NCBI RefSeq assembly: GCF_044324785.1
Contig: NZ_CP172128.1
Length of the DNA stretch: 64,000 bases
Direction: 5' to 3' (one strand)
DNA from: Escherichia coli
GTDB lineage: Bacteria > Pseudomonadota > Gammaproteobacteria > Enterobacterales > Enterobacteriaceae
A program made the position numbers. Position 1 is the stretch's first letter; each line of letters begins with the position of its first letter. Below are positions 11,201-14,200 of the stretch, in pieces.

Positions 11201-14200
11201 GCTGAAAAACAGACACGCATAATTCATAAATCATAATTATGAATTGTGATTTATTCTGTAAAAAAGAGACCACTGCAATATGTGATCTCTTGTATGCAAG
11301 GGGGCTTAAACAGTATGAATTCACAAGTGTGATTTCATAAGTAATAACTTTTTGATTATTATGTTAGTGTTTTTAAGTATTGCTCAAGGGCTACTCTGAC
11401 GATGGCACTTACATTTTTTGGATCTTTACCATTGCGTTTATTCCTCAATGCCAGATCTTCTATTGTGACAAGCATGCTTTCACCAAGAGAGATTGTCGTC
11501 CGACATTGTTTTTCTGGTTCGGTTTTTTCCGGCGCGCCGTATGGTTTATCCGCAAGGCGCTGAGCCAGAGCCTCTGCTTGTTCTACCGTAACTGCAGCTC
11601 TGTTTAATGCTTGCTGGCTGGGTTTCTTCACCATGGGCCAAATACCTCATTCATTAAATGTTCAATTTCTGCTTTGGCTGCTGTATTGTTCGTTTCTACT
11701 ACACCGGTGCCGTTGCTCATGCAATCGCGATAGACTTTTCTGAAACAAATAACTGAATCCAGAACTTGAATTGTTGGGAATTCTTCAAGATATTCAAGGA
11801 ATTCTTTTCTCTCATTTCCCCTCAAAACCGGATTGGTTGTTGCCATACTTTGTAAACAATAAACCTTAAGTTCCGGGTTAAGGTTACGCATTGCGTCTAT
11901 CTGTTGTTCTAGTTCTGTAAGAGTATCCAGGTCTGGTTGAGAACACTGTAGTGGCGCAATTATTTGATGTGCGACAACTCCACTCGTTATGAATTCCTTT
12001 GAGTTTCTTCCTGCGACATCCACTATTACATCATCGAACTTTTCATTCAGAGCCTGTAGTGTTTGTGTCAGATTATCAAATTTCTCAACAAGAGTTATTG
12101 CTGGTAAAAGTCCTGCAGCTTCTCGTTCCGCATGATGTTTTGCGGCTGTTCGTTGTAGATCTCCGTTTAACAGGCAGACTTCCCTTCCTTTATTTGCGAG
12201 AGCAATAGCCAGGTTTGATGCAATGGTAGTTTTCCCTGAACCACCTTTGTTCCCACCAACTACAGTAATCATTGCAACCTCATAAATGTGATGTGTGAAG
12301 TATGATGATATTTTGACACGGTAACCTGAGGTGTCAATATGCGTTCATATTTATGAAGTATGAAACATGAAGTGTTTCATATGATGTAATAAATAATACT
12401 TGTGTTTTGTGATTTCATAACTATGATAGTACTCAAATTGAGTATTACCTTGCAACCAGAAACAGTGATTTACTCAGATTGAGTATTTAAGGGGCTATAG
12501 ATGAACGTATACTGCGATGATGGTTCAACAACAATCAAGTTGGCATGGAATGACAATGGGAAAATCAGTAAGTCGTTGTCGCAAAACTCATTTCGTCATG
12601 GATGGAAGGTTGACGGGTTAGGGATTCGCCAGACATTTAACTATGAACTGGATGGTAAAAAATACACGTATGATGAAGTTAGCAACCAATCTATTCTTAC
12701 GACTCATATTGAGTATCAATATACGGATGTTAACCTGTTAGCTGTGCATCACGCTTTACTGAATAGTGGATTAGTGCCTCAGCCTGTATCATTGACTGTG
12801 ACTTTGCCTATCAGTGAGTTCTACACGAAAGAGTGTCAAAAAAATGAACTCAACATTCAGCGTAAAATTGAGAATTTAATGAGGCCGATTCGTCTTAATA
12901 AAGGCGATGTTTTCACCATTGAACACGTTGATGTGATGCCTGAATCATTGCCAGCTGTGTTTTCTCGTCTGGTCATGGATAAAGTTGGTCAGTTCGAAAA
13001 ATCGCTGGTAGTTGATATTGGCGGCACTACGCTTGATGTTGGTGTTATCGTTGGTCAATTTGACTCTGTAAGTGCCATTCATGGTAATTCTGGCATTGGT
13101 GTGTCTTCAGTTACGAAAGCTGCAATGAGTGCATTGCGCATGGCATCCAGTGATACCAGTTTCCTCGTTGCAGATGAATTGATTAAACGTCGTAATGACC
13201 CGGACTTTGTTCGGCAGGTTATAAATGACGAAACAAAAACTGATCTGGTCCTTAATACCATTGAGGGGGCTATTGCCAGTCTGGGGGAGCAAGTAGTCAA
13301 TGAGCTCGGTGATTTTCATCATGTGAATCGTGTTTATGTTGTCGGTGGTGGGGCACCGTTGATCTATGATTCGATAAAAACGGCATGGCACCATCTTGGG
13401 CAAAAAGTAGTGATGATGGAGTCGCCACAGACAGCACTGGTTGAAGCTATCGCGGCTTTCAAAGAGGAGTAATATTGTGGACGATGAACGGAAAAGGAAA
13501 AAATTCACACTTTATCTGCATCCGGAAAAAGCTGCAGACTTTCAAACTTTGGAAGCGATAGAGTCCGTTCCGCGTTCTGAGCGTGGTGAGCTGTTCCGGA
13601 ATGCATTTATTTCTGGAATGGCGTTACACCAACTTGATCCTCGCCTGCCTGTATTGCTGACTGCCATTTTGAGCGAGGAGTTTTCAGCAGATCAGGTTGT
13701 AACCTTACTCAGTCAGACGACTGGATGGAAGCCTTCTCAGGCCGATATCAGAGCTGTGTTGACTGAACTCGGTGCTTCGCAATCTGCTGAAAAAATGCCT
13801 CCTTCTGCTACTGATTCGGTGCAGGAGGCAATGAATGATGTGCGCCTTAAAATGCAAAAATTATTCTGATATATCAGAATGAAGCAATGGGGATCTCAGT
13901 CCATTGTGTTGTATACGAAGGCGAGAGCATTTCCCGTTTCATTTGCCATTCAGGGGCGGTTCCTCGCCCCGCAAACCACACTTTCCCTTTTCCCGACTGG
14001 TTCAGTTCATCGAGTGTTTTCATTAACTTTTCACTGTTTTTACGGGGCTGGATTTCATCAAATAATCCCGGCTGCGCTATACCCGATGGTGTGAAATCAG
14101 CCAGCATGACTCCTGCCTTCATATAGCGGTACCCTTCACGCCAGACATGGTTTAAGGCTCTGCATGCGGCGGCAATAATGTCCCGGCTGTCCTGTGTGGG

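Follow-up and report, generated by a model that had tools for sequence, protein, structure and literature searches.

Two plasmid partition systems of different type that are transcribed divergently from one intergenic region raise the question of whether they share a centromere and whether they regulate each other. Such a locus is located on contig NZ_CP172128.1 of the Escherichia coli assembly GCF_044324785.1, in a stretch of 64,000 nucleotides that was analyzed as a whole and is called the window here. A gene for a ParA-type ATPase and a gene for a small adaptor that probably belongs to the ribbon-helix-helix (RHH) class, both on the minus strand, diverge from parM and parR on the plus strand. 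This arrangement had been proposed in the original prediction for the locus, and open reading frames (ORFs), coordinates and protein families agree with it. The same prediction had called the back-to-back arrangement unusual and had treated a shared centromere or cross-regulation as an open question. Both views had to be given up: the same locus is known from plasmid pB171 and is present on approximately 1.3% of sequenced plasmids, and the literature answers the question with a common parC1 region, separate repeats for ParB and ParR, and regulatory cross-talk. We assign a probability of roughly 0.93 to the reading in which an IncK2/Z (I-complex) ColBM conjugative plasmid carries a copy of the double partition locus of the pB171 type. 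Our analysis covers the identities of the genes, the near-identity of their products to the pB171 proteins, the repeat systems and their statistics, the co-variation of repeats with adaptors and the co-inheritance of the two modules.

Two proteins carry the assignment. ParR is identical to the sequence of PDB entry 2JD3 at 127 of 130 positions (97.7%; the substitutions relative to 2JD3 are F10Y, A104V and Q127K), and 2JD3 is the ParR protein of pB171 (PMC3074162). ParA has exactly the sequence filed under UniRef RepID Q0H055, a UniProt accession that is given as pB171 ParA in a paper from 2026 (PMC13245405), and it is 100% identical to the copy on pUTI89. Because of these two matches the locus is regarded as the double par locus of pB171. 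Gene order, orientation and protein lengths are the same as on pB171 (Table 1); in both cases ParB repeat arrays flank parAB on both sides and two ParR repeats are located upstream of parM. As is characteristic of this type of locus, the two operons diverge around a common region of about 200 bp (228 bp here), and all four par ORFs are intact. The differences from pB171 are the three substitutions in ParR, a partial extra parC2 5 kb away and the host replicon: pB171 is an F-like virulence plasmid, whereas the replicon here belongs to the IncK2/Z I-complex ColBM plasmids. None of these differences implies a difference in function.

The stop codon of parA and the start codon of parB overlap by 7 nt (ATGGTGA), and parR starts with a GTG 4 nt past the parM stop. 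This start fits the RefSeq annotation by the NCBI Prokaryotic Genome Annotation Pipeline (PGAP) and the sequence of 2JD3. The longest possible parR ORF would begin with a TTG at 13441; this start was dropped in favor of the GTG at 13477. The spacer between parA and parM is AT-rich (GC content 32%, compared to 51% for the window). It had been described as a shared, repeat-rich region of 230 bp, which is correct for the region and its repeats and not for its length, which is 228 bp.

Table 1. Features of the double partition locus and of its partial duplicate, with positions in the window.
Feature	Position	Strand	Description
Partial second parC2 (left half)	6059-6127		Three phased heptads at 6063, 6070 and 6077; downstream of the intact integrase gene
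parC2	11215-11358		Predicted second ParB centromere array downstream of parB; GC 32% vs 51% in the window
parC2 heptad clusters	11224-11251 and 11314-11341		Four T[AG]TGA boxes each, 7-bp register
parB	11359-11634	minus	91 aa (amino acids), probable RHH centromere-binding adaptor, type Ib (par2); ORF and Pfam
parA	11628-12272	minus	214 aa, type Ib deviant-Walker-A ATPase (par2); ORF and families
parC1	12273-12500		Common control/centromere region: candidate parA promoter, three ParB heptad clusters, two ParR boxes
ParB heptad cluster A	12280-12307		Four boxes; separates the parA start from the candidate parA promoter
Candidate parAB promoter P2	12310-12337	minus	-35 TTGACA, 16-nt spacer, TG-extended -10 CAAAAT; 10/12 consensus positions
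ParB heptad cluster B	12343-12386		Contains the third predicted palindrome (12360-12380)
ParB heptad cluster C	12408-12428		Three boxes
ParR box 1	12430-12444	plus	TACTCAAATTGAGTA; 71 nt upstream of the parM ATG; predicted
ParR box 2	12471-12485	plus	TACTCAGATTGAGTA; 30 nt upstream of the parM ATG; predicted
parM	12501-13472	plus	323 aa, actin-like ATPase, type II (par1); ORF and Pfam/PDB
ParR-box-like palindrome	12701-12715	plus	GACTCATATTGAGTA; parM codons T69, H70, I71, E72 and Y73; candidate extra ParR site
parR	13477-13869	plus	130 aa, RHH adaptor of ParM, GTG start; PGAP, PDB 2JD3 and Pfam

In the nomenclature of pB171, par1 is the type II system parMR and par2 the type Ib system parAB. 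The double locus was reportedly first described on this E. coli plasmid by Ebersbach and Gerdes in PNAS in 2001 and by Ringgaard et al. in JBC in 2007. The latter work is said to have found that ParR and ParB bind cooperatively to unrelated sets of repeats in parC1, that the non-cognate par1 operon is under repression by ParB as well, and that integration host factor (IHF) contributes to par2 function. One later paper lists parC1, parA, parB and parC2 as the components of par2 (PMC4270457). Further papers state that ParB repeat arrays are located on both sides of parAB, the upstream array being also regulatory (PMC7602700), that there are two repeats for ParR upstream of parM (PMC9426499), and that par1 and par2 are divergently transcribed with a mutual effect on expression (PMC11950199, citing Ringgaard et al., 2007). 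Because of this literature, the questions that the locus raises have already been answered experimentally: between 2001 and 2009, work on pB171 resolved how the shared region is built, which centromere repeats belong to which system and how the two systems regulate each other. The double par arrangement with its shared region and its repeats is an already known, experimentally dissected textbook system, and par2 of pB171 is a standard model of ParA-driven plasmid positioning.

To determine the distribution of the locus, a 2.8-kb query was compared by megablast to the 72,556 plasmids in PLSDB, with at least 80% coverage and at least 95% identity. These criteria were satisfied by the whole locus in 982 records, by its parAB half in 989 and by its parMR half in 976. 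These numbers are nearly equal, therefore the two halves travel as one cassette. For the combination of a type I system with an RHH-ParB and a type II system, 971 PLSDB accessions have been reported (PMC13245405). The hosts are IncF plasmids (pRS218/pUTI89, pEA04.3) and I-complex plasmids (IncI-gamma/K1, IncK2/Z), and where the backbone is intact the neighborhood consists of integrase, parB, parA, parM, parR and then impB/umuC. The IncK2/Z ColBM plasmid pLH10-b-1-A has a sequence almost identical to that of the window. The IncF plasmids pUTI89 and pRS218 and the I-complex plasmid p205880-5 have the same cassette in the same neighborhood; parC1 is 98% conserved among the IncF and I-complex copies, and the few point differences include substitutions between A and G at the degenerate position of the heptads and, in the first ParR box, TGCTCA for TACTCA.

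The joint inheritance bears on the possibility that partition depends on only one of the two modules, the other being carried along as redundant or serving only to regulate the transcription of its neighbor. Dual systems of unequal weight do exist, SCP1 and R27 having one system that is dominant under laboratory conditions (PMC13245405), and the nearest parAB relatives outside the clade, on pGA45 and pKPN107_1, stand alone beside umuDC without parMR. Nevertheless we consider a non-functional half very unlikely in this locus: next to the four ORFs, both sets of centromere repeats are intact, the whole cassette is conserved (at least 95% identity) in about 980 plasmids with different backbones and with near-equal counts of its halves, and par2 of pB171 on its own is used as an active stabilizer of mini-R1 (PMC4270457).

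Two repeat systems can be distinguished around the genes. The first consists of the pentamer T[AG]TGA, which occurs in either orientation and in a strict 7-bp register in five clusters, three in parC1 and two in parC2. In the window, 13 of the 16 box pairs with a spacing of 7 are located in the regions flanking parAB, and two more lie in the partial parC2 duplicate. The heptad counts of parC1 and parC2 were reached by none of 2000 shuffles; parC2 has 9 boxes and 6 spacing-7 pairs, where 0.007 pairs are expected (0 of 2000 shuffles were as high). Predicted ParB-type repeat arrays are thereby present both upstream (12280-12428) and downstream (11224-11341) of parAB, as on pB171. Clusters A and B flank the putative promoter P2, for which a candidate sigma-70 site is inferred at a level where promoter-like matches overall are as frequent as in shuffled sequences (5 compared to 5.9 expected).

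Three palindromes had been reported for the shared region, and all three are present (12430-12444, 12471-12485 and 12360-12380). The third, ATGAAACATGAAGTGTTTCAT, is not an independent unit, it is the junction of oppositely oriented T[AG]TGA heptads. As an operator of its own it was rejected, since its symmetry is lost in sister plasmids while the heptad boxes are kept; the variation of cluster B in these plasmids is an A/G exchange at the degenerate box position, which restores T[AG]TGA at 12366.

An IHF-consensus match, WATCAANNNNTTR, is found on the minus strand at 11345-11357, between the last parC2 heptad cluster and the parB stop. Exact matches to the IHF consensus occur twice in the whole window, which is the chance level. 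The position of the match fits the reported role of IHF in par2, and it is suggestive as a location only.

The second repeat system comprises the two ParR boxes, which are 15-bp palindromes of the form TACTCA-N3-TGAGTA. As on pB171, two direct repeats (17 nt, at 12430 and 12471) are located directly upstream of parM. The pattern TACTCARATTGAGTA, with up to 2 mismatches, has 5 matches compared to 0.14 expected, and none of 100 shuffles gave as many. Relatives with 60-80% ParM identity have the same box family upstream of parM, with conserved arms and a variable center. A box is located 29-33 nt upstream of the parM ATG in 9 of 9 lineages with at least 60% ParM identity, and loci of the tandem type described below (66-80% ParM identity) have four boxes, at -138, -104, -64 and -30.

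The 228-bp region borders on both operons, and ParB probably belongs to the RHH proteins as ParR does, which would be compatible with a single common centromere in which ParB and ParR bind the same intergenic repeats. The repeats themselves make this highly improbable. Heptads (12280-12428) and palindromes (12430-12485) are unrelated families in separate sub-regions, and only the heptads recur at parC2, beside parB. Among relatives the palindromes follow parMR, whereas the flanking repeats follow the type of parAB. On pGA45, where ParA is 81% and ParB approximately 70% identical with the same beta-strand residues, the same heptads are present on both sides of parAB; on pKPN107_1 (ParA 58%, ParB 38% identical) an 8-bp unit, TTTATGAT, occurs five times on both sides of parAB instead of the heptads. 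Across these two relatives the flanking repeats, as judged from sequence comparison, track ParB.

The protein families agree with two separate partition systems. ParA has the deviant Walker A motif KGGSGKT at residues 9-15 (N-terminal sequence MITVVGGNKGGSGKTT) and, as is characteristic of type Ib, no N-terminal helix-turn-helix domain: the protein has 214 amino acids, and its family alignments begin at residues 2-7. The similarity to TP228 ParF in the PDB is distant (E=1.2e-7). The probability that this ATPase serves in positioning or regulation in the manner of MipZ or MinD and has no role in plasmid partition is negligible, even though many RefSeq records bear the PGAP name 'division plane positioning ATPase MipZ', Pfam MipZ matches with 5.7e-07 and the NCBIfam ParA_partition score is under its curated cut-off, because the MipZ and MinD matches are confined to the P-loop (residues 2-52), the best full-length match is to ParA_partition (NF041546; residues 7-209, E=6.7e-34, 117.2 bits), pB171 ParA is represented by this very sequence, and the gene is operon-coupled to a gene for a probable RHH protein with repeat arrays on both sides, the signature of type Ib.

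For ParB, which had been called ParG-like, the evidence is at the level of the fold class. Pfam RHH_1 matches weakly (residues 45-88, E=0.0038), the AlphaFold model has an extended segment at 44-50 followed by helices at 52-68 and 75-90, and the source records use the names 'CopG family' and 'ribbon-helix-helix domain-containing'. The ParB protein of pB171 has likewise been classed as RHH (PMC2441792). No match was obtained in NCBIfam, and the PDB sequence search returned chance hits only, without a ParG or omega match even at E up to 10; similarity to ParG in sequence is therefore not detectable. ParM matches Pfam StbA_N (1.4e-64) and the ParM C-terminal domain (6.4e-44) as well as the R1 ParM structures in the PDB (E=2.4e-76). 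ParR, encoded directly downstream of parM, matches Pfam Plasmid_stab_B (PF10784) with 1.6e-29 and has no match in NCBIfam.

Several points weigh against the identification with the pB171 locus. The identity rests on the ParR structure sequence and on a UniProt accession and not on a DNA alignment. The 7-bp register and the 15-bp palindromes are worded differently from the '10-bp direct repeats' that are quoted for ParR (PMC9426499). The 117.2 bits of ParA are below the curated cut-off of 180 for the NCBIfam NF041546 ParA_partition equivalog, and by its sequence ParA is a member of the ParA_partition class outside of the curated NF041546 equivalog. For parM, the scan with the sigma-70 consensus gave no convincing promoter match. 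Finally, the function of the double par locus in an IncK2/Z backbone is a prediction.

With protein binding, promoter positions, cross-repression and the stabilization phenotype taken from the literature or inferred, the double par locus would work as follows. In par2, ParB dimers would bind cooperatively to the 7-bp-spaced T[AG]TGA arrays in parC1 and parC2, and the ParB/parC complex would stimulate nucleoid-bound ParA-ATP. The resulting ParA gradients would lead to an even spacing of plasmid copies over the nucleoid. In par1, ParR dimers would bind to the two TACTCA-N3-TGAGTA boxes just upstream of parM, and the ParR/DNA complex would cap the actin-like ParM filaments, which would push sister plasmids apart. 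The two systems would thus share the 228-bp region physically, with unrelated and non-overlapping repeat sets. Each adaptor is expected to autoregulate its own promoter, and according to the pB171 literature the two operons influence each other's expression.

The one element of the locus that is possibly new is located inside parM. In the 64 kb there are exactly three copies of the core CTCANATTGAGTAT, where 0.09 are expected, and the third copy lies within the parM gene, at +200 and 230 bp downstream of the promoter-proximal ParR box. We compared the parM codons of five lineages with 66-86% ParM amino acid identity (this window, Enterobacter kobei, Leclercia, Yersinia ruckeri and Salmonella). 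Among 179 alignment columns with an invariant, degenerate amino acid, 15 are also invariant in their codons, and five of these 15 are the consecutive codons 69-73. The 17-nt invariant run at the internal palindrome is the longest in parM in these five lineages; the next longest has 8 nt. In Klebsiella variants the only changes are CAT to CAC in the center of the palindrome and TAT to TAC at the third position of codon 73 (Tyr), immediately 3′ of the box. Serratia (TTNIEY) and Pectobacterium (TTHVDY) lack the internal box. Because these codons are invariant while other synonymous sites are scrambled, the invariance of codons 69-73 is indicative of selection on the DNA sequence itself, for which an additional ParR site would be the simplest reason. 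Such a box could help to wrap or loop the partition complex, or it could act as a roadblock and thereby adjust the expression of parM. A description of an internal ParR site in parM was not found in a literature search that excluded the primary pB171 papers.

A second observation concerns the pairing of the two types of system. The ParMR subfamily (60-80% ParM/ParR identity) nearly always adjoins a type Ib parAB. The partner parAB belongs to at least three families, whose ParA proteins are mutually only 24-30% identical and each of which has its own repeat motif. Most of these relatives have the tandem orientation. The pB171-type partner is divergent from parMR, and so is the partner of the Yersinia ruckeri pYR4 type (L016), whose ParA is 29% identical to that of the window and which has AATATTAA-like repeats. 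The third type, found in Enterobacter, Salmonella, Klebsiella, Leclercia and Pectobacterium, is located in tandem upstream of parMR and has a ParA 27-30% identical to that of the window together with GCAGCAAGAT repeats; tandem loci are L009, L010, L011, L015, L017 and L018. The phage-plasmid-like element p13ZX28-90 has the order parM-parR-parA-parB in tandem. The recurrent association of ParMR with varied type Ib parAB suggests selection for the pairing of type Ib and type II itself. Taken together, an undescribed ParR-type cis element [T/G]ACTCA-YAT-TGAGTA within parM plus selection for the type Ib and type II pairing is a tentative proposal that we regard as rather doubtful at present.

Comparison with other well-studied systems places both modules. 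TP228 ParF/ParG/parH and pSM19035 delta/omega also have a small deviant-Walker-A ATPase; their adaptor is, as ParB probably is, an RHH protein with a flexible N-terminal tail, and their centromeres are likewise composed of short boxes in both orientations. The 7-bp register found here resembles the omega heptads of pSM19035. Neither TP228 nor pSM19035 is known to have an adjoining type II system. ParA of the window is only distantly related to ParF, and ParB has no detectable sequence similarity to ParG or omega. The parMRC system of R1 has a ParM of the same fold and family, and there, too, repeats around the parM promoter are bound by a ParR of the RHH class. Its parC consists of ten 11-bp iterons, whereas the locus described here has two 15-bp palindromic boxes (four in the tandem-type relatives) plus the conserved box in parM. 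R27 (IncHI1), with Par1 and Par2, and Shigella pINV likewise carry two partition systems that differ in type (PMC13245405); as described, their type I partner is different and no common control region of both modules is reported.

Outside of the locus, a self-BLAST of the window revealed a duplication in which 5596-6127 matches 10760-11295 with 94% identity over 536 bp. The duplicated segment consists of the 3′ end of the integrase gene and the left half of parC2, and the two copies bracket the immunity and activity genes of colicins M and B, an IS1 element and a truncated colicin B gene. The partial parC2 copy at 6059-6127 could serve as an extra, weak ParB site, to judge from its three heptads. 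The identity of 94% suggests recombination between plasmids with different alleles of the integrase-parC2 junction.

A further gene with a partition-related name is located at approximately 20287-22245 (from L001 21088-23046), in the leading region between ssb and psiB. It codes for a 652-amino acid 'ParB/RepB/Spo0J family partition protein' and has no ParA partner nearby; rather than a third partition system, it is likely the ParB-like protein that conjugative plasmids encode in their leading region. At the other end of the par locus, a perfect 16-bp palindrome (TTCTGATATATCAGAA, 13864-13879) spans the parR stop codon (TGA, 13867-13869) and also that of the umuC/impB-like gene, which is convergent with parR (TCA on the plus strand, 13874-13876). 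It is not followed by a T-run and is thus unlike a classical terminator.

The practical value of identifying the locus lies in annotation. In RefSeq, PGAP labels ParA as 'AAA family ATPase' or as the MipZ positioning ATPase and ParB as 'hypothetical protein', so that the cassette is systematically under-annotated. These labels hide a well-understood stability cassette that is present on IncF virulence plasmids and on I-complex resistance and colicin plasmids. The internal box in parM and the recurrent pairing with type Ib systems would be small, testable additions to a mature field.

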